Shown here: positions 3,443-17,006 of the stretch, one piece after another
Layout of the letters: each line of letters opens with the position of its first letter
Numbering within the stretch: position 1 is the stretch's first letter
NCBI GenBank assembly: GCA_963711735.1
Contig: CAVQFA010000003.1
Location: 82,971 to 146,970, forward strand
Direction of reading: 5' to 3'
Source of the DNA: Candidatus Gottesmanbacteria bacterium
GTDB lineage: Bacteria > Patescibacteriota > Microgenomatia > UBA10105 > UBA927
Length of the DNA: 64,000 bases
The notes under the pieces: model-generated
Told to the model about the DNA's origin: nothing
Databases searched by the model: none
Seen by the model: the letters and a program-made list of their open reading frames with translations, nothing else
Made by a program: the position numbers and the translations under genes

Positions 3443-3512
3443 CGCGGGGTAGTGTACAGTTGCACAGAAGGCTCATAATCTTCTAGGCTGGGTGCGACTC
3501 CCAGCCCCGCAA
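3443..3512 (+). tRNA. tRNA-like cloverleaf with a CAT anticodon. Noncanonical: C1-A72 mismatch, D-loop without GG, T-loop TGCGACT. Possibly a degenerate tRNA-Met or an attachment site
   Basis: Manual fold: acceptor GCGGGG/CCCCGC with a C1-A72 mispair; U8; D-stem GTGT/GCAC; anticodon stem GAAGG/TCTTC with loop CTCATAA (U33-CAT-A37); T-stem CTGGG/CCCAG; discriminator A. The 3' part is repeated at 4743-4789. Confidence 0.35.
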
Positions 3513-3525
3513 CATATTAAATAAT

Positions 3526-7388: not shown

Positions 7389-8264
7389 TTACATTTCGCG
7401 CAGATTACCGGCTTTCTTCCAGCAATCGTAGTCAGCATAGAAGATGGCAATCGGCAAGCGAGGTGCAGATACTTGAGTGAACCAGCCGATGAACGGACGG
7501 TTGAAGACTAGTGGCCTCGGCTCATCCAGATCAATACCCTTGCGCATTGCCATACCAGTTGCGACTTTGACCCGGGCACCTTCCTTGTTGATCCGCAACA
7601 TGAACTGTTGATACGCTTCACTGATGTACCAGTACTGATCACTTTCATCGTGAGTATCAGCACCAACCAGGAAGCTGATGTCAGGCTTCATGTTGAAATC
7701 CACTTCGGGCACCTGTACGGTCGAGATGTTGCCAACGCGAGAATGACCCTTTGACATCGTTGTAAACGCGATGCGAATCAGATCCATCGGGCTGGTTGGC
7801 GTCGTATTGGGCATGGTGAGCCAGAGCTTGTCACCGCTTTTAGTCAGCAGACTTGCAACCTGCGAACCTTCCACAGTGAAAACAGTGTGTCCACCTTGAG
7901 GGATTTCAAACCCAGCGTGTGTCCGGTTGTCGCGGCCGTAAATCTCGCAAAGCGCAGCCTGCTTGAGCCATTCGATGAGCATGTCAAGGATCGAAACAAC
8001 GCCGATGCCCTCGAGTGGTCCGTTGAACATGGGATCAAATCCGCTGTCCGTGAGAAAACGGTTCAGTTCTTCCCAGTCAGTGGACGCTTTGGCTTTGAGA
8101 TTTGCCAGTGCACTCAACATGCCTTTGTATTGGCGGTAAAGCTCAAAGACGACGATCTGATTCTGGTTCTTGGTACCCCACTTCCGATCTGCACCCAGGT
8201 ATGCGTTTTCCAGAGTATGCAACGCATGGAAGATGGTTGTTACGTCGATCGCTTGTGTAGCCAT
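7389..8264 (-). CDS. Serpin-like protein, short form (paralog A)
   Basis: 291 aa. The C-terminal part is collinear with serpins: the breach-like LILLLKWKV, the hinge EGARVKVATGMAM (cf. EGTEAAAAT), a reactive-centre-loop-sized spacer, then FNRPFIGWF...PRLPIAIF (cf. FNRPFLFxI...PLFMGxV). The ~100 N-terminal serpin residues are missing. Confidence 0.5.
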   Translation of the reverse strand: MATQAIDVTTIFHALHTLENAYLGADRKWGTKNQNQIVVFELYRQYKGMLSALANLKAKASTDWEELNRFLTDSGFDPMFNGPLEGIGVVSILDMLIEWLKQAALCEIYGRDNRTHAGFEIPQGGHTVFTVEGSQVASLLTKSGDKLWLTMPNTTPTSPMDLIRIAFTTMSKGHSRVGNISTVQVPEVDFNMKPDISFLVGADTHDESDQYWYISEAYQQFMLRINKEGARVKVATGMAMRKGIDLDEPRPLVFNRPFIGWFTQVSAPRLPIAIFYADYDCWKKAGNLREM

Positions 8265-8323
8265 ATGATTCTCCTTGTTGTGTCGAGATAATCAGATTAA
8301 ATTGAATTGGTGAATGTCATCGC

Positions 8324-9187
8324 TTACATAAGATCACCCGGATCAGTCCAGTTCTCCTGGGTGATGTGTGCGACGAGCAGCGGTTTAGCGAGACCGTCGC
8401 GGACAATCCAGACCAGGAACGGTCGGTCGATGACGAGGTCGGGCTTCGACAAAATCGCGAATTCAAGCGTGATAGCGGCAGCTGCAGCGCTTTTGAGTAA
8501 CGCGCCCTTATCGTTCATCTTGAAGATCGTCTGCTGCTTCGCCTGGCTGATCCTCGCCTGCTGACCTGTGTTGGCGGTAGTCTCCATGTTCAGGAGCCAA
8601 CTAATATCGACAAGCTGATCGAGATCGACCATCGGGAAAACCAGGTCACCAAACTCCCTGTTGTGCTCGAGGGATGCCTGTATCTGCTCGACGTAGCTCA
8701 CGAGGTCGAAGTCAGTCGGTGGTGTCTCCATGACAGTCATAAAAACCTGATCTCCCGACTTGGTGGCAATGCAGACGACCGGTTTGGGGTGTTTGACGGA
8801 CGTATAGTAGGACATACCATTTTCCATCCGAACACCGTCATAGGTTTTACCATCTGCTGCGCGAAACTTCTCCTTCATGCCCTCCACCTTCCATTTGAGT
8901 AGTAGGATCAGGGTGGCAGCAACGCCGAAAGTGTCCTCGTCGAAATCGTCCAGCGTGATGCTGAAACCGCGCTCCTGCAAGAAACGGTTAATGTCCTCCG
9001 CACTCCAACTCGCAATCGACTCGATCTCCGAGATGCCCAGAACCTCATTGCGTGTGCGGTCGAAAAACTCAGTCAGGAAGCGCGTCTGCATCTGGTTCTG
9101 GGGACGCCAAACGCGACCCTCACCGATGATGTCATCAGCCTTACGGATAGCAGCTACGATAGGATGCATACATACTGTAGTACTCAT
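8324..9187 (-). CDS. Serpin-like protein, short form (paralog B)
   Basis: 287 aa, a paralog of 7389-8264. LILLLKWKVEGMKEKF, VFPMVDL, the hinge KGALLKSAAAAAIT and IDRPFLVWIVRDGLAKPLLVAHITQE match the serpin C-terminal signature. An AAGGAG RBS sits 8 nt upstream of the ATG. Confidence 0.5.
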   Translation of the reverse strand: MSTTVCMHPIVAAIRKADDIIGEGRVWRPQNQMQTRFLTEFFDRTRNEVLGISEIESIASWSAEDINRFLQERGFSITLDDFDEDTFGVAATLILLLKWKVEGMKEKFRAADGKTYDGVRMENGMSYYTSVKHPKPVVCIATKSGDQVFMTVMETPPTDFDLVSYVEQIQASLEHNREFGDLVFPMVDLDQLVDISWLLNMETTANTGQQARISQAKQQTIFKMNDKGALLKSAAAAAITLEFAILSKPDLVIDRPFLVWIVRDGLAKPLLVAHITQENWTDPGDLM

Positions 9188-9582
9188 GTCAAATCTCCTT
9201 TAGAATCGTGAAAATAGTGAACGAAAAAACAAACGTTTGTTTGCCATCCGACCACTTGGTCGCCTCAGCTATTTGGTCCTGTACGGGGACACAAAATCAG
9301 TTTTCTCCTATTCTGATTTGTTTGTTTTAGCTTTGGTTGATGGCTATCCGAACACGATATACATCATGCCCGTGTAGCCACCAACCAGCTTCAGAAACTG
9401 GAGAGAAATAAGTAGTTCGTAGGGAGACGATTCCGGCACAACCTATTCCATATATCCAGTCACGAAAGAGCCTCACTATTGAGACGTTTCATATCTTGAT
9501 AATACAGACGGTCATACCGGTATAACTCCCTACGAGTATATTCAGTTGTTAATGTGCTATCACTTAAGAAACAAAAAAATGA

Positions 9583-9617
9583 CCCGGAGCATAACATTTG
9601 CTCCGGTTTATTTTTTT
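9583..9617. terminator. Bidirectional intrinsic terminator-like hairpin (CCGGAGCA-TAACATT-TGCTCCGG flanked by an A-run and a T-run)
   Basis: Seen directly in the sequence. It lies inside the 730-nt noncoding gap. Confidence 0.45.
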
Positions 9618-9654
9618 ATATCACTAAATAAATCGACGTTCTTTCTTCTTCTTA

Positions 9655-9705
9655 TCCCCTTTCGCTCTTTTGAGCTCATCAGTACGGACATACATCCGTA
9701 AAGGG
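9655..9705 (-). ncRNA. Hammerhead ribozyme motif (type III topology)
   Basis: The minus strand reads ACCCU-U-[UACGGA UGUAUG UCCGUA]-CUGAUGA-[GCUC AAAA GAGC]-GAAA-GGGG. The conserved CUGAUGA and GAAA cores are present. Stem I is 6 bp and directly precedes CUGAUGA, stem II is 4 bp with a tetraloop, and stem III is ACCCU/AGGG(G), which places a U-H cleavage site directly before stem I. Confidence 0.6.
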
Positions 9706-9922
9706 TGGTGCGATTTATATATTTTGTCTTGTGAGACTGATATAAAGGTTCGCACCGACCTATAAACTTCAAGAGTATAAAAACCGCAATTTTTCCCCGA
9801 CCTAGATTTGGTCAGTTACCTTTCAATCGCCGTCCGGCGAGCCATATTATGGCGAAAGGTCTGCTAGAGGGGGATCCCCGCAGTGTTAGGGGACACTAAT
9901 TCAGAAAATGTCTTTTCTATAG

Positions 9923-10711
9923 CTAGTTATCAGACTGTTTCTGAAACTTCGTCATGCGCTCTGCGACACGCTGTTCGATCGGTATCTCAGGGCTTTTAGC
10001 AAGAGATTCCAATTCGGCGGTAGCTTTGAGTTCGGCGCGAACTTTCTCTGCCTGTTCGGTCCAAACATCTGCTTCAGCTTCAGCGTCTTTGACCAAGTCG
10101 TATGCCTTCTTGATCTGTTCGTCGTTGCCATCAACGCCGAGTGTCGAAATCAGCTTGTTGGCATCGCCAACGCTTCGCGCTGTGCGCGACCGGACATCGA
10201 TCTCGTTGACCTGGCGGGCGCGAACGGCGATGATCTTTGCCAAATCCGTAAGAGCTGCTTCGACGTCAGCTTCCTTAGTTTTGATCTTGTTGAATTCAGG
10301 CTGAATGGTATCCACGCGGCCTTGAGCTTTAGCAATTTTTTCTTCGGCTTTCGTGACCAAATCAGCATTCTGAATGCTTGCCGCGTTATCAGCTGCGGCA
10401 TTGTATTTGGCAACATCAGCCATAGCTTCTGCCAAATCGTTTTGCAGGCGACGTCGGACTGTCTTGATTGCAATCAGGTCGGCGTTACCACGTGCTTGTT
10501 TGATTTCAGCATCGCGCTTAGATTTCAAGGCGCGATCCTTTGCGCTGTCCAGCAAACGCTGAGCGCGGGTTTTCAGCCCGAAAACGCGTACGCGGATTGT
10601 CTCCGCTAAAGGGTCAGGCGAGAGTGCACACCAGGCGGCAATAATCGCCCCAATGACCACAGCCAGTAAGATAGTTGTTCCAGTAGACATTTGATATACT
10701 CCTTCTTGCAT
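9923..10711 (-). CDS. Membrane-anchored coiled-coil protein, PspA/IM30-like (tentative)
   Basis: 262 aa: an N-terminal TM helix followed by a long A/Q/R/E/K-rich coiled coil. ...VRARQVNEIDVRSR...KDAEAEADVW resembles the conserved PspA segment ending in AEAEA. Confidence 0.4.
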   Translation of the reverse strand: MQEGVYQMSTGTTILLAVVIGAIIAAWCALSPDPLAETIRVRVFGLKTRAQRLLDSAKDRALKSKRDAEIKQARGNADLIAIKTVRRRLQNDLAEAMADVAKYNAAADNAASIQNADLVTKAEEKIAKAQGRVDTIQPEFNKIKTKEADVEAALTDLAKIIAVRARQVNEIDVRSRTARSVGDANKLISTLGVDGNDEQIKKAYDLVKDAEAEADVWTEQAEKVRAELKATAELESLAKSPEIPIEQRVAERMTKFQKQSDN

Positions 10712-10788
10712 TGATTTAAAAGGTTTTGTCTATGATTTGTTTGATCAGATTTTATTTTCTTTGGGTTATATCTCTTTTACTATCCTCC

Positions 10789-11400
10789 TTATGATGCCAA
10801 TGCTAGGATCAAAGTCGCAATTTTCACTACCACGACCATGATGACATGGCTATTGTTGTCCTTCATTGTCACCCAGTCACGGAATTCATCCATGTTGTGT
10901 ATAGAGAAAACGAACCGTGCAATCAGGATGGTGATACAGTCCCCGACAATCTCGCCCAAGGCTCCTCTGGTCATGATGCCATACAGATACTGATCAAAGG
11001 AAGCTCCTTTTATCGATACGATCAGTGCGAGAGTTAGGAAAATCAAACCACCCAGGATAATCGCGTGACTGTCATTCCGTGGGCTTTCGAATTCTCGCTT
11101 TATTTGACGAATTGGGGTATCCAACACATGGTAAAAAATCACCCATGCCCGCACAAAAACGATACCGATCACGATGCCCAATCGGATAAAATACTCCCCT
11201 ATCCAACCGGGGATATTCCCGAATGTTTCCGTCACCACATGTGTTGACGGAGCCAAAACATATTGAGCAATGGCAAATACTAAAACCATAAGGCTCCACC
11301 AAATAATCGTATATAACGTTCCGCTGATACCTCTAGTCGGAAAATGCACATGTTTCTTAATGCTGGCGCTCATAAATCGCTCCTTGATCTTATGCTGCAC
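10789..11400 (-). CDS. Integral membrane protein (about 5 TM), function unknown
   Basis: 203 aa with hydrophobic helices. Same strand and operon-like spacing as its neighbours. Confidence 0.5.
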   Translation of the reverse strand: MQHKIKERFMSASIKKHVHFPTRGISGTLYTIIWWSLMVLVFAIAQYVLAPSTHVVTETFGNIPGWIGEYFIRLGIVIGIVFVRAWVIFYHVLDTPIRQIKREFESPRNDSHAIILGGLIFLTLALIVSIKGASFDQYLYGIMTRGALGEIVGDCITILIARFVFSIHNMDEFRDWVTMKDNNSHVIMVVVVKIATLILALAS

Positions 11401-12160
11401 GCAAAATCTTGCCGCAGTACTGTTGAATGGTCATTCCTAGTGCATGACCCATCTTCCAAACACGATCCGCTCCAGCCTTGACGTTTTCCAGATATATGAT
11501 GTTCTTCTGGGTGTCTTCGGCCAACATGTATTTCACCATCATGCCGTTTGGAAGGTGACTTGTTCCATCTGTTTGTTCATACCGAAGATATCCGACGTCT
11601 AGTACGGTCAATTTCTGACCATTCCACTTAAACGAATAACTCCGTGGTACTTGATCATATTGTTCGCTGAAGGTTACACCGGCTTCATCAAACATGGAAG
11701 CGGATTCGCCCTCTAACACTATCGCGTTTCCTTTGTCGAACCAAAACCAGCCATCCGGACGTTTTATCAGCATAATTGTGCCGTCCAGAATAAAAACCGG
11801 CCAGTTTTCTCCCCGATCAGTGAAATTACGATCAGAACGATTTAGCGCGCACAATTGTCCCCTGCAGGTAACAACACGTTCTTTTCGTTCAAGAACATTA
11901 ACGCTATCTAAGTCGATCTCTACCGTCTCTCCTGAACGCAAATCTTCGAATTGCTTCTCTATAGGTGCGTCATAAGGAATACGGCTCATGGATGCCTTTG
12001 TTTCATTGGCAACCTGAACTAGAACGTTTGTAGATTTTCGAACAGTAGTGATCCATTCTTTCAAATCACGAATATGTTGTGGATTCGAGAGTAGGTAGCC
12101 GAGACCAGCCACCAACAATATCACAAACCCAAATATTACGAGTATTGTTCCTGTTATCAT
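11390..12160 (-). CDS. Membrane-anchored hypothetical protein (possibly DUF4178-like)
   Basis: 256 aa with an N-terminal TM and a soluble domain containing WPVFILDGTIMLIKRPDGWFWFDKG and YSFKWNGQKLTVLDVGYLRY. The family assignment is from memory only. Confidence 0.4.
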   Translation of the reverse strand: MITGTILVIFGFVILLVAGLGYLLSNPQHIRDLKEWITTVRKSTNVLVQVANETKASMSRIPYDAPIEKQFEDLRSGETVEIDLDSVNVLERKERVVTCRGQLCALNRSDRNFTDRGENWPVFILDGTIMLIKRPDGWFWFDKGNAIVLEGESASMFDEAGVTFSEQYDQVPRSYSFKWNGQKLTVLDVGYLRYEQTDGTSHLPNGMMVKYMLAEDTQKNIIYLENVKAGADRVWKMGHALGMTIQQYCGKILRAA

Positions 12161-12183
12161 GCTTTAAGCTCCTTATTTTTGAC

Positions 12184-13482
12184 TTACCATCCGTCATCAC
12201 TGCCCCAATCGTCGCTGGAATCCCAACTGTCATCACTGCCCCAATCGTCGCTGGAATCCCAACTGTCATCACTGCCCCAATCGTCACTGGAATCCCAACT
12301 GTCATCACTGCCCCAGTTGTCATCGCCGCCCCAATCGGAATCAGAACTCCAGTCAGTATCAGATCCTTCGTCATCAGAACTACCTGAAGAATCAGAATCT
12401 GAATTCCAATCCCAGCCTGAAGATGAACTCGGCGAATCATCATTATCAGAATTGCTAGGAACAGAAGTTGGTGGTGGAGGTTCAGCAGCAGAAATGCTCA
12501 TGTTTGCATAACTCACACATGAATTAACATGTGTAGTCACACTTGAAAAATCCTGAGATATACATGACTGATATGCTAAATCTCCTTCACTAATAGCAAG
12601 GTTATATTTGCTTTGCGCGACGATACTGTCATAAGCACCGATCAGTTGTGAGGCTGCAAGATTAATGGTGCTTTGACAATTTGCGATTTGTGATTGTGCT
12701 TGGTCAGCGGAGACATTGAGTTGTTCAGCGGTTGTTCTTGCTGATTCAACTTGATTTGCAACTTGTTGTGCTTGATCGTATGCTACAGGTTTGTCCACAA
12801 CGCCATCCGGAACGATCACTGTAAGTGTCGTCCGTGCGACATTAAGGCCTATTGATGCTTGGTTGAGTATGCTTAATGCGGATTCGTATGATAAAAGCGT
12901 TGATGACCCACATAAAGCTTTTGCAGGCAGGGTATTAATGTATTGTCGTCCTTCGTCAATGCTTGCCTGAACCCTATCGATATAACCACTGTCGATTTCT
13001 TGGGTTTTTTGATTAAGGATGTCATAGTATCGCTGATCCGTAGTACCTGGAGGACCAAGGATTTGAATAATTATCAGTTCTGAATTATTTAGAGCTGCAT
13101 CTGCTTCTTCCCAGTACTGACGTGCTAAGGTGCGGTTATTGTTTTGTAGCGCCTGCACACCAGATGCCCAGATATTATAGATTGTTCCATTGTTCTCTAG
13201 ATTGTCACGGGAAGTAGACAGTTTCTGCTCAAATCCTTCAGACCAATGTCGAGCAAATAGAGCTGCGTTTTGATCGAATTCATTCTCCGCGTTAGGAAGC
13301 ATTTGAAGCAGCGTTGTTCTGCGTACCTCAATATCTGCGAGCTTATTAGTTAAGTCACGTAAGTCCGCTGCACCAAACGCATTTATAATGAGTCCAATAG
13401 CTATGAGAACGATTCCCAAAGCGGCAACCCATGCCCACTTACTGTTGTCGACCTCGTGTCGACGATAGTAATAAACAGACAT
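12184..13482 (-). CDS. Membrane-anchored protein with a C-terminal acidic Trp-rich tandem repeat (DDWGSDDSWDSS)n
   Basis: 432 aa. The N-terminal TM is KWAWVAALGIVLIAIGLIINAFG. The C-terminus is encoded by 36-nt tandem DNA repeats. Confidence 0.55.
   Translation of the reverse strand: MSVYYYRRHEVDNSKWAWVAALGIVLIAIGLIINAFGAADLRDLTNKLADIEVRRTTLLQMLPNAENEFDQNAALFARHWSEGFEQKLSTSRDNLENNGTIYNIWASGVQALQNNNRTLARQYWEEADAALNNSELIIIQILGPPGTTDQRYYDILNQKTQEIDSGYIDRVQASIDEGRQYINTLPAKALCGSSTLLSYESALSILNQASIGLNVARTTLTVIVPDGVVDKPVAYDQAQQVANQVESARTTAEQLNVSADQAQSQIANCQSTINLAASQLIGAYDSIVAQSKYNLAISEGDLAYQSCISQDFSSVTTHVNSCVSYANMSISAAEPPPPTSVPSNSDNDDSPSSSSGWDWNSDSDSSGSSDDEGSDTDWSSDSDWGGDDNWGSDDSWDSSDDWGSDDSWDSSDDWGSDDSWDSSDDWGSDDGW
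12191..12330. repeat. Intragenic tandem repeat: 36-nt unit (CCAATCGTCGCTGGAATCCCAACTGTCATCACTGCC) about 3.5 copies
   Basis: Near-perfect direct copies seen in the sequence. They encode a 12-aa D/S/W/G repeat on the minus strand. Confidence 0.8.
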
Positions 13483-13842
13483 TTGGCATACCTCCTGCTC
13501 TGAACGTCAAGCTGGTTTGCGTCATCTTTCTATTGTTTAGTTGTCCTCCTGTATGAGATAAGTCGGATAAAATTGTATCAGCACTATAATAAAGCTGTAG
13601 TGCTTTCAAAGCCGATTGTTATCGACCCTCAAAGCACTACAGCAATCCCCTTTTTAATTTTTTCTCTTGAAGTTGTTAAGGTGCAAAATCTATGGTTTCC
13701 AACCCCACAATCACCCTTTCGGGTATATGTGGTTCTAATTTCTTTTTTTAAAAAGAAAAAGAACCACAAAAAACACTCCGCAAAATTGGAGTGTGGTTGT
13801 TTGGTTACGTAGCCATAGAATAGAACTCTCTCTTCGGGAAAA

Positions 13843-13890
13843 CAAAATAACCGCCGCCGGTGATTTCCACTGGCAGGCGGTTAAAATTTT
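13843..13890. terminator. Strong hairpin (AACCGCC GCCGGTG...CACTGGC A GGCGGTT) flanked by an A-run and a T-run; bidirectional terminator-like
   Basis: Seen directly in the sequence. Confidence 0.4.
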
Positions 13891-14108
13891 GAGGCACAAT
13901 TGCCCCAACCCCCAAAGATTTGAGTAAACGGAATTATACCTGACACTACTCTCACTGTCAATCACTATAGGGTATTTTATGTTAAAAAACCTTGGCTTGC
14001 ATTGAGGTTAATCAGCAGAACATATATATATTGATATGTCGGAAGTTTGATTTTCTTGCTTTTTCGTTGACTTCTGTCTTTCAGTCCCCATACAGTAGAA
14101 CTAGGCAT

Positions 14109-14672
14109 ATGAAATCAAAGAAAAAACCGGGTTTTCACATTTCAAATACCCTTCTCATTGTTCTTCTCCTGGCTAACGTTCTCATTCTCGACATTTGGGT
14201 TGTAACCCATTATCTTTGGGGTTCTCCTTCGGTACTCGGTGTTTCAAGTGATGCGTGTCCGCAATCGTGCATCGACAGGATAAACCGTACGTCAGGGTCC
14301 GCATCATCCTCCAAAGAATACTTCGTGCCGCTCGGGTCAGGAACAGGCACATCCAAAGAATGGGCGGATGTTTCCGGGGCACAGGCGTATATCGACAGCA
14401 CTCTCTACCCCGCCGGAAAGACTGTGACATTTGAGGTAACCCTTACGATTCCGGCAGGAAACCAGATCGTATGGGTGCGCCTCTATAACGCCACAGACAA
14501 ACACCCTGTATGGTTCTCGGAACTGTCTATGGAAGGATCCGGTCCGCGCGCGCTTATTTCAGGTCCCATTACCCTTGATTCGGGGAAAAAACTCTACGTC
14601 GTACAGCTTAAAACCCAACTCGGAACGCTTACAAACGTACTCCAGTCACGCATCCGCATTGTAGCGAAATAA
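14109..14672 (+). CDS. Secreted/membrane-anchored hypothetical protein
   Basis: Start taken at MKSKKKPGFHISNTLLIVLLLANVLIL (signal/TM), not at the track start 13992. No recognisable domain. Confidence 0.45.
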   Translation: MKSKKKPGFHISNTLLIVLLLANVLILDIWVVTHYLWGSPSVLGVSSDACPQSCIDRINRTSGSASSSKEYFVPLGSGTGTSKEWADVSGAQAYIDSTLYPAGKTVTFEVTLTIPAGNQIVWVRLYNATDKHPVWFSELSMEGSGPRALISGPITLDSGKKLYVVQLKTQLGTLTNVLQSRIRIVAK

Positions 14673-15418: not shown

Positions 15419-16279
15419 ATGTCCCTAGACCTGAAGACCGCTCATGCCCAATTTATCGAACACCTTACCTCACGCAGACGTGCCCGCGCTACCATCATAG
15501 CATACGCCAAGGACATCGATCAGGTGCTTGCATACCTTACAAATGCCGGAAAAAAGGATGTGACTGACGTGACGCGTGATGAAATCGAAGCGTTTCTGAA
15601 AAAACTGTCAAGCGACAGCTACACACCCAAGTCCGTTTCACGGAAAATCAACTCGATCAAGACATTTTTCCGGTTTCTCAAATCATCCGGTGCTATTACG
15701 GCTGATCCGGCAATTGAGATAGAGCATCCCAAATACGAAGTCAAACCGCCCCGGATTCTGTCTAAACTGGAGTACCGCGCCCTTCGGGATGCGTGCCGCG
15801 GTGATCTTCGTACTCATGCAATCGTTGAACTTTTTCTCCAGACAGGAGTGAGGATCGGAGAACTGGCTAATCTGACTCTAACGGACATCAAAGAAACAGA
15901 ACTTCATATCGCGCCTGAGGAAGGTCACGCAGAACGCATGGTTCCTTTAAATAAAGCAGCTAAAGATGCTCTCAACAGCTATCTTGCACAGAGAAATTCC
16001 AACGGTACAAGCCAGGCTCTTTTTATCACAAAAACAGGCAAGCCGCTTCTTATCAGAAACATCCGTACTGCAATTGACCGGTATTTCCGTGTGGCAGGTA
16101 TTGAGGGAGCCAAAGTCAATGACCTTCGGCATACATTCATCGCCCACCACCTCATTGCCGGTACACCCATCACAACCCTGTCAAAACTTGTCGGACATAA
16201 ACGTTTATCCACAACGGAAAAGTACCTGGATCTCGTCAAGGATAAGCAGACGGAAAACGTGAAGCTTGATGAGTTATAA
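15419..16279 (+). CDS. xerD: Tyrosine recombinase XerC/XerD-like
   Basis: 286 aa. The N-terminal SAM-like domain reads TIIAYAKDIDQVLAYL. The catalytic region LRHTFIAHHLIAGTPITTLSKLVGHKRLSTTEKYLDL carries the R..H..R..Y motifs. Confidence 0.8.
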   Translation: MSLDLKTAHAQFIEHLTSRRRARATIIAYAKDIDQVLAYLTNAGKKDVTDVTRDEIEAFLKKLSSDSYTPKSVSRKINSIKTFFRFLKSSGAITADPAIEIEHPKYEVKPPRILSKLEYRALRDACRGDLRTHAIVELFLQTGVRIGELANLTLTDIKETELHIAPEEGHAERMVPLNKAAKDALNSYLAQRNSNGTSQALFITKTGKPLLIRNIRTAIDRYFRVAGIEGAKVNDLRHTFIAHHLIAGTPITTLSKLVGHKRLSTTEKYLDLVKDKQTENVKLDEL

Positions 16280-16911: not shown

Positions 16912-16934
16912 AAATATTTAATATATGTCGTTTG

Positions 16935-17006
16935 TGCGCCTGCTTGGAATCGGACCAAGTACATCCACTTTATAAGAGTGGCGTTCTACCACTGAACTAC
17001 AGGCGC
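16935..17006 (-). tRNA. tRNA-Ile (anticodon TAT)
   Basis: Minus strand reads GCGCCTG-TA-GTTC-AGTGGTA-GAAC-G-CCACT-CTTATAA-AGTGG-ATGTA-CTTGG-TCCGATT-CCAAG-CAGGCGC-A. All stems are perfect, and positions 34-36 are TAT. Confidence 0.85.

Follow-up and report, generated by a model that had tools for sequence, protein, structure and literature searches.

The minus strand of the stretch of DNA analysed here (hereafter the window, meaning all 64,000 nucleotides) carries a compact RNA motif whose identity as a type III hammerhead ribozyme is strongly supported by its intact core, its topology and the covarying family to which it belongs. In our view, the best explanation of its sequence and surroundings, and probably the right one, is that it acts as a bona fide self-cleaving hammerhead that segments a transcript and defines the 3′ end of an operon mRNA.

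Structure of the motif

From 9710 to 9654 on the minus strand, the motif reads 5′-CACC-ACCCU-U/UACGGA-UGUAUG-UCCGUA-CUGAUGA-GCUC-AAAA-GAGC-GAAA-GGGG-AU-3′, where the slash marks the predicted cut (Table 1). A preliminary description of this DNA had claimed the complete CUGAUGA ... GAAA core on the minus strand, a 6-bp stem I (UACGGA/UCCGUA) immediately 5′ of CUGAUGA, and a 4-bp stem II (GCUC/GAGC) with an AAAA loop, and all of these elements are present, the core being intact; stem I amounts to 7 bp if the U-G at the base of its loop is counted. The type III topology had also been recognized correctly, in that stems I and II are capped, stem III is open and the core-adjacent pairs, U9700-A9683 and G9675-C9664, are in place. 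In hammerhead numbering, C3-A9 corresponds to 9682-9676, G12-A14 to 9663-9661 and A15.1 to A9660; the G10.1-C11.1 pair (G9675-C9664) closes stem II, and the A15.1-U16.1 pair (A9660-U9702) is present. H17 is U9701, which is unpaired and not G, and a U-H site (U9702-U9701) does lie directly before stem I, as had been noted, with the predicted cut at 9701/9700. The triplet C9703-U9702-U9701 is CUU, a minority choice found in 6 of the 116 members of the family described below. The earlier account of stem III needs correction: the helix exists, but it has four pairs (U-A, C-G, C-G and C-G) and not five, and A9706, previously counted as its fifth nucleotide, lies unpaired opposite G9656.

Table 1. 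Positions of the ribozyme, its parts and the neighbouring features (numbering of the window).
Feature	Position	Strand	Basis
Type III hammerhead ribozyme, 55-nt covariance-model match	9654..9708	-	family model R1 and Rfam RF00008, same span
Minimal ribozyme	9705..9657	-	sequence
Stem I hairpin, UACGGA (9700-9695) / UCCGUA (9688-9683), 6 bp, loop 1 UGUAUG	9683..9700	-	sequence
Core strand CUGAUGA (C3-A9)	9676..9682	-	sequence; columns invariant in the 116-member family alignment
Stem II, GCUC (9675-9672) / GAGC (9667-9664), 4 bp, loop 2 AAAA	9664..9675	-	sequence; family covariation
GAAA (9663-9660) and 3′ strand of stem III, GGG (9659-9657)	9657..9663	-	sequence; stem III covaries in the family
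5′ strand of stem III, C9705-C9704-C9703-U9702	9705..9702	-	sequence
Predicted cleavage site, phosphodiester 3′ of U9701 (H17)	9700..9701	-	hammerhead numbering applied to the sequence
Stable hairpin, GGUGCGA (9756-9750) / UCGCACC (9713-9707)	9707..9756	-	MFE -14.9 kcal/mol, z=-6.85
Intrinsic bidirectional terminator, CCGGAGCA / UGCUCCGG and U-run (9606-9584 and U-run)	9571..9606	-	terminator scan and fold
Promoter-like site, downstream of the terminator	9563-9535		promoter scan
Two weakly serpin-like genes (291 and 287 aa), 466 nt from the ribozyme	7389-9187	-	
Four-gene operon (432, 256 and 203 aa, PspA-like 262 aa)	9923..13482	-	ORFs; weak PspA/IM30 match

Statistical support and the Rfam score

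How often would such a motif be expected by chance? The bare core (CTGATGA-N8-30-CGAAA) has an expectation of 0.24 per window. When the full type III descriptor was applied (stem I of at least 4 bp, stem II of at least 3 bp, stem III of at least 3 bp plus the A-U pair, and H17 other than G), exactly one site was found in the window, namely the candidate, and 1500 dinucleotide-shuffled windows gave four relaxed matches (about 0.003 per window), none of which equalled it. The earlier assertion that a random occurrence is unlikely in 64 kb is thus borne out. The MFE structure of a 71-nt segment is a three-way junction (z = -2.5). Scans of the 64-kb window by pattern, with Rfam and with the family model R1 detected no second ribozyme that would enable the production of a circular RNA.

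At the gathering score, a search of the whole window with Rfam returned two tRNAs only and no hammerhead. In E-value mode, the RF00008 (Hammerhead_3) model, which had been proposed as a check, matched 9708..9654 with 29.2 bits, below its gathering score of 48.5, and with E values of 1.6e-4 on 251 nt and 0.04 on the whole window against 4227 families; the candidate aligns end to end with the 54-position model. By itself, this match is suggestive but not decisive. The low score does not refute the identification, because the relatives score likewise: clear members of the family reach only 26-45 bits with RF00008 (26.2-45.2), and 0 of 15 loci attain the gathering score. We therefore regard the sub-threshold score as a property of the subfamily and not as the sign of a false positive. 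Because the RF00008 threshold leaves out this entire subfamily, standard annotation misses the candidate and its clear relatives, which number at least in the hundreds.

A covariance model (R1) was built from the 116 family members, with the window left out. It matched the candidate over its full length without indels (67.8 bits, E=3e-18), and this was its sole match in the 64 kb. Scores within the family range from 57 to 76 bits, so that the candidate is a mid-range member.

A family of related hammerheads

A first scan of IMG/VR with the loose pattern CTGATGAG-N10-CGAAAGG returned a handful of type III matches closely resembling the candidate. A second scan, with the pattern CTGATGAG-NNN-AAAA-NNN-CGAAA, which leaves stem I, loop 1 and stem III unconstrained, returned at least 120 phage contigs, and among the matches listed, 111 of 131 raw matches have the complete architecture, that is, a 6-bp stem I, a 6-nt loop 1, a 4-bp stem II, the AAAA loop 2, a U-H site and a short stem III. 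When 185,579 species genomes were scanned with a GG-ending variant of the pattern, 53 loci were found, about 40 of which carry the same ribozyme, mostly in Patescibacteria MAGs; the hosts include Saccharibacteria, Woesebacteria and Shapirobacteria, often with several copies per 8 kb. A metagenome scan with one pattern (GTA...GGGG) gave no matches, and one with another pattern gave five relatives. The closest relative found, L281, comes from a JGI metagenome and has a near-identical ribozyme (69.4 bits with R1).

The 116 distinct family sequences align without gaps. Paired cells make up 98.4% of the alignment, compared with 35-43% in slid controls, and 13 of the 15 pairs have changes on both sides, with a covariation score of 0.943 (0.07-0.15 for slid partners); the aligned members had been filtered for pairing, but 111 of the 131 listed matches already had the full architecture before filtering. 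The stems vary and the loops are conserved, loop 1 as UGNNUR and loop 2 as AAAA, to which the UGUAUG and AAAA of the candidate conform; its loop 1 also matches the narrower family form UGURUG. Loop 1 is UGUGUG, UGUGUA or UGAGUG in 81 of the 116 sequences, UGUAUG is also found, and the commonest stem II is GUCC/GGAC.

In the phage contigs, the ribozymes occupy short same-strand intergenic gaps between co-directional genes, at a median of 37 nt past the stop codon and often about 20 nt ahead of the next ATG. These positions fit the published view of hammerheads that cut polycistronic RNA into gene-length pieces (PMC3088659). The copies of the window and L281 resemble each other most, and both are placed at a transcription unit's 3′ end and not ahead of a start codon. 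The L281 module (8790-9063) lies 73 nt past a hypothetical gene and faces a convergent tRNA-Asp, and the L281 genes, which are unrelated to those of the window, look chromosomal (EamA transporter, tRNA-Asp, LemA and M48 peptidase). We found no longer repeated element: similarity to the other copies ends at the ribozyme borders, except in L281, which has the hairpin stems and the purine-rich tail beyond the ribozyme in common with the window. A terminator behind the ribozyme is found in 2 of 26 genome members and 6 of 83 viral members and does not characterize the family, nor is a promoter in that position supported as a common trait.

Some further observations were made on the family. Eight Patescibacteria-type contigs (L234, L277, L239, L240, L258, L270, L275 and L276) carry two to three copies within 8 kb, sometimes on both strands and beside mostly hypothetical genes, and the MAG SRP286056_co1_440, which bears the label 'Pseudomonadales', contains at least five copies whose stem I matches that of the window exactly. 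In many of the family-bearing phage contigs, the ribozyme lies a few kb at most from a gene for a full-length GroEL homologue with 34-39% identity to the GroEL of the window (L111, L112, L123, L126, L127, L136, L140, L155, L164, L166, L168, L172, L177, L180, L181, L197, L215, L218 and others). Much of the viral part of the family may therefore be accounted for by a single large clade of phages that encode GroEL.

Genomic context

The gap that holds the candidate extends from the stop of the PspA-like gene (9923) to the start of the serpin-like gene (9187), covers 735 nt (9188-9922) and contains only ORFs of 54 aa or less; the noncoding gap of about 730 nt in the preliminary description is therefore real. 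The ribozyme lies 214 nt past the PspA-like stop codon and shares its strand with the transcription units on both sides. Because no sigma-70-like promoter was detected between that stop codon and the ribozyme, we place the ribozyme in the putative 3′ UTR of the operon. The terminator, which is strong, follows 48 nt past the ribozyme with no ORF between them. Given this position upstream of a terminator and the shared strand, the ribozyme should be transcribed.

With regard to the neighbours, the placement of the ribozyme between a PspA-like gene and a serpin-like pair holds, but the serpin assignment is weak, since the match to the Serpin profile is limited to the C-terminal 60-70 residues or so and scores 19.6 and 22.7 bits, below the Pfam cut-off of 27. 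Both products are also about 100 residues shorter than typical serpins. The 'higher-GC block' that had been reported here stands out only slightly, at 0.47-0.48 compared with about 0.44, and values of up to 0.51 occur in other blocks. The suggestion of a prophage setting did not survive closer inspection, as the neighbouring genes match no phage family and no phage DNA match was found. A blastn search against 50,697 phage records gave no match, PADLOC and PHROG gave no phage or defence match (PHROG, 0 of 7 genes from 7389 to 14672), and the only gene matching integrase families is a XerC/D-like recombinase at 15419-16279, beyond a tRNA. We rejected the prophage reading on the strength of these blastn, PADLOC and PHROG results and because the homologues of the operon are found among housekeeping genes. 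The context looks chromosomal, and the flanking genes are rare and hypothetical.

Among 5.8 billion proteins, the PspA-like protein has only three homologues. Two of the corresponding loci (L001 and L002) conserve the operon, with its last three genes together, and the homologues sit among housekeeping genes. A protein of the window is also present in run ERR12037368. No hammerhead is present downstream of the three PspA-like homologues (L001-L003), so the ribozyme is not conserved at this locus. Weak protein similarities (45-53% aa identity to a few loci) hint at Saccharimonadales-like relatives. Beyond the weak PspA/IM30 match, the four-gene operon has no match in Pfam, PADLOC or PHROG.

The window also contains a tRNA-Ile with the anticodon UAU at 16934-17006 on the minus strand (ARAGORN; 69.3 bits with the Rfam tRNA model). 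In most bacteria, AUA codons are decoded by a CAU tRNA modified with lysidine, and a UAU tRNA-Ile is uncommon; this gene may be informative on taxonomy. ARAGORN predicted a third tRNA (Met, CAU) at 3443-3513 on the plus strand, which Rfam reported neither at the gathering score nor at E<=1.

A hairpin abutting the ribozyme

A stable hairpin abuts the ribozyme on its 5′ side in most members of the family and in the window. The 50 nt upstream of the ribozyme have a mean MFE of -15.6 kcal/mol and a mean z of -3.06 in viral members, 77% of which are at or below -10 kcal/mol, and a mean MFE of -13.5 kcal/mol and a mean z of -2.83 in genome members. For the 50 nt downstream, the corresponding values are -3.4 (viral) and -6.0 (genome) kcal/mol, with z of -0.10 and -0.61. 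In L281, the stem of the hairpin is kept though its loop has diverged. A 3′-tail metric (short tail and MFE <= -10) discriminated poorly, as it was satisfied by 81-93% of the family and by 59% of the control segments. In the window, the hairpin has an optional extension, GGU (9760-9758) / ACC (9706-9704), which would take up the 5′ strand of stem III.

Stem III is able to form, but in the 356-nt 3′ UTR as a whole (MFE -118.9 kcal/mol, z=-6.9), the MFE fold pairs AGGGGAUA (9660-9653) with UGUCCCCU (9895-9888), which disrupts stems II and III. A fold of this transcript that contains the hammerhead is 6.3 kcal/mol less stable than the MFE fold, according to energy models that ignore tertiary contact and co-transcriptional folding. 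The centroid structures retain stems I and II together with the hairpin 5′ of the ribozyme. The 214 nt that separate the stop codon from the ribozyme (9709-9922, minus strand) are themselves unusually structured (MFE -61.9 kcal/mol, z=-3.5); they match no Rfam family, and no homologue of them was found.

Proposed mechanism

How might the hammerhead act in this setting? We envisage that it would be transcribed within the 3′ UTR of the PspA-like operon, that stems I and II would dock through their loops, and that the RNA would be cut 3′ of U9701 by internal transesterification. The upstream mRNA would then be left with an end of the form ...hairpin-ACCCUU bearing a 2′,3′-cyclic phosphate. The hairpin could subsequently extend by the GGU and ACC segments, capturing the released strand of stem III, and we propose that this capture would make the cut irreversible and would leave a nearly flush, exonuclease-resistant 3′ end. 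The downstream product would be a 5′-OH RNA of about 128 nt, consisting of the ribozyme body, a purine-rich linker and the terminator hairpin. In this way, the operon mRNA might be uncoupled both from the terminator and from read-through into the serpin-like genes. The protective role of the hairpin is one that we infer from its position on the 5′ product. For the family as a whole, the same segmentation job appears to be performed between the cistrons of phage operons.

Could the motif have another meaning? Several features count against the reading of a functional, transcript-segmenting hammerhead: the start of a gene just behind the ribozyme, as seen in the phage members, is missing here, stem III is limited to 4 bp, the CUU triplet belongs to a minority, a terminator behind the ribozyme is not typical of the family, the Rfam score stays under the gathering score, the MFE fold of the 356-nt 3′ UTR disrupts stems II and III, and the ribozyme is absent at three related loci. 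An intact-looking but functionless relic, dropped by a phage or mobile event and either not transcribed or cleaving without consequence for the host, would be consistent with this absence from the related PspA-like loci and with the lack of a gene immediately downstream, and also with the single copy in 64 kb and with the similarity to other copies that stops at the module borders. We nevertheless consider such a relic unlikely, given that all the core nucleotides and the three helices are intact with a score typical of the family, that the accessory upstream hairpin is intact as well (z=-6.85), and that the strand and the downstream terminator indicate that the element should be transcribed. 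Alternatively, the cleavage might serve small-RNA biogenesis, releasing a stable 5′-OH RNA of about 128 nt (9700..~9573) that acts in trans; the strong terminator so close behind the ribozyme, the lack of an intervening ORF, and the purine-rich linker AAGAAnAnGAAAGAA, which is common to L281, are in line with this idea. However, a terminator is rare in the family, the downstream flanks of the family are unstructured, and neither a target nor evidence of conservation was found, and we accordingly give this explanation little credence.

A conditionally active ribozyme, whose cleavage depends on folding kinetics or on a factor, would make sense of the unusually structured 3′ UTR and of an MFE fold that replaces stems II and III, since UGUCCCCU (9895-9888), AGUUUAU (9768-9762) and GGU (9760-9758) compete with these stems. 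Yet stem I, stem II and the upstream hairpin all persist in the centroids, L281 has not conserved the long-range partners, and the energy models omit the loop-loop tertiary contact as well as co-transcriptional folding, so that gating of this kind seems very improbable to us. As for a chance resemblance to the hammerhead consensus, the Rfam score below the gathering score, with its E value of 0.04 for the whole window against all families, could be taken in its favour; it is effectively refuted already by the shuffled windows, 0 of 1500 of which had a site as good as the candidate, by the E value of the family model, and by the agreement of loop 1 and the upstream hairpin with family traits that formed no part of the retrieval criteria. 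We thus return to a hammerhead that segments the operon transcript as the explanation that we favour.

We can also speculate, tentatively and with considerable doubt, that the hairpin and the hammerhead together form a chromosomal, phage-independent device for RNA 3′-end formation and insulation that is widespread in the reduced genomes of the Patescibacteria type. If this were true, transcripts in these organisms would be cut at the boundaries of transcription units into hairpin-capped mRNAs, and the device would be a partial stand-in for terminators and processing RNases; at the present locus, the stability of the PspA-like operon mRNA would be determined by it, and the 5′-OH RNA of about 128 nt would be released.

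Comparison with known hammerhead ribozymes

That bacteria and phages carry hammerheads in their DNA has been known since 2010-2011. Bacterial type I and type III hammerheads and phage-linked ones are already established (PMC3088659, PMC6155905), and the present candidate adds one more, unsurprising example to a well-known ribozyme class. The biological role of prokaryotic hammerheads has been described as an open question (PMC6155905). In this regard, the conserved hairpin on the 5′ product suggests a concrete role, namely a protected 3′ end and the uncoupling of adjoining transcript segments. Many of the copies are found in Patescibacteria-type genomes, in contexts that are not phage-like. 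No paper linking hammerheads to Patescibacteria was found in the library that we searched.

The candidate has the core, the A15.1-U16.1 pair, the non-G H17, the G10.1-C11.1 pair, the capped stems I and II and the open stem III in common with the type III ribozymes of RF00008 (clan CL00010). It differs from them in its score (29.2 bits, below 48.5, with the whole subfamily at 26-45 bits), its 4-bp stem III and its CUU triplet. Among individual hammerheads, that of the tobacco ringspot virus satellite RNA (sTRSV), quoted as GUC-ACCGGA-UGUGCUU-UCCGGU-CUGAUGA-GUCC-GUGA-GGAC-GAAAC (PMC9519601), has a similar 6-bp stem I, a loop 1 starting with UGU(G), and a 4-bp stem II with a tetraloop; moreover, the commonest stem II of the family, GUCC/GGAC, is identical to that of sTRSV. 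Loop 1 of the window has 6 nt, whereas that of sTRSV has 7, and loop 2 is AAAA in place of GUGA. We infer that a loop 1-loop 2 contact of the sTRSV kind may form in the candidate; in hammerheads, such tertiary contacts allow rapid cleavage at physiological Mg2+. The settings differ as well, in that the sTRSV hammerhead resides in a circular satellite RNA replicated by a rolling circle, whereas the window holds a single DNA-encoded copy in a bacterial chromosome.

RiboJ-type insulators consist of an engineered sTRSV hammerhead and a downstream hairpin, and they uncouple adjoining transcript segments. Both RiboJ and the present locus thus pair a hammerhead with a stable hairpin, but the window has a naturally occurring hairpin that precedes the ribozyme and forms part of the 5′ cleavage product.

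The intergenic hammerheads of bacteria and prophages described so far are for the most part pseudoknotted members of type II in the vicinity of integrases or prophages (Perreault et al. 2011, PMC3088659; PMC6155905). They flank genes and cleave polycistronic RNA in vitro and in E. coli (PMC3088659), and the processing of polycistronic transcripts has been proposed as their role (PMC3088659; PMC6155905). Like them (PMC3088659, PMC6155905), the present family is DNA-encoded, frequently multicopy and found between genes of the same direction, many of which are small, non-conserved or hypothetical. In contrast, the ribozyme of the window is of type III, with a putative loop-loop architecture, its neighbours have no phage protein matches, and its place is a putative 3′ UTR followed by a terminator, not the stretch directly before a start codon. 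The loose pattern also caught many phage hammerheads of another design (e.g., L015, L038, L049 and L100), in which the hairpin loop of stem I is able to pair with the 'stem II' region. These are consistent with the pseudoknotted hammerheads reported previously (PMC3088659), and they are often found directly after a GC-rich hairpin and directly before an ATG.
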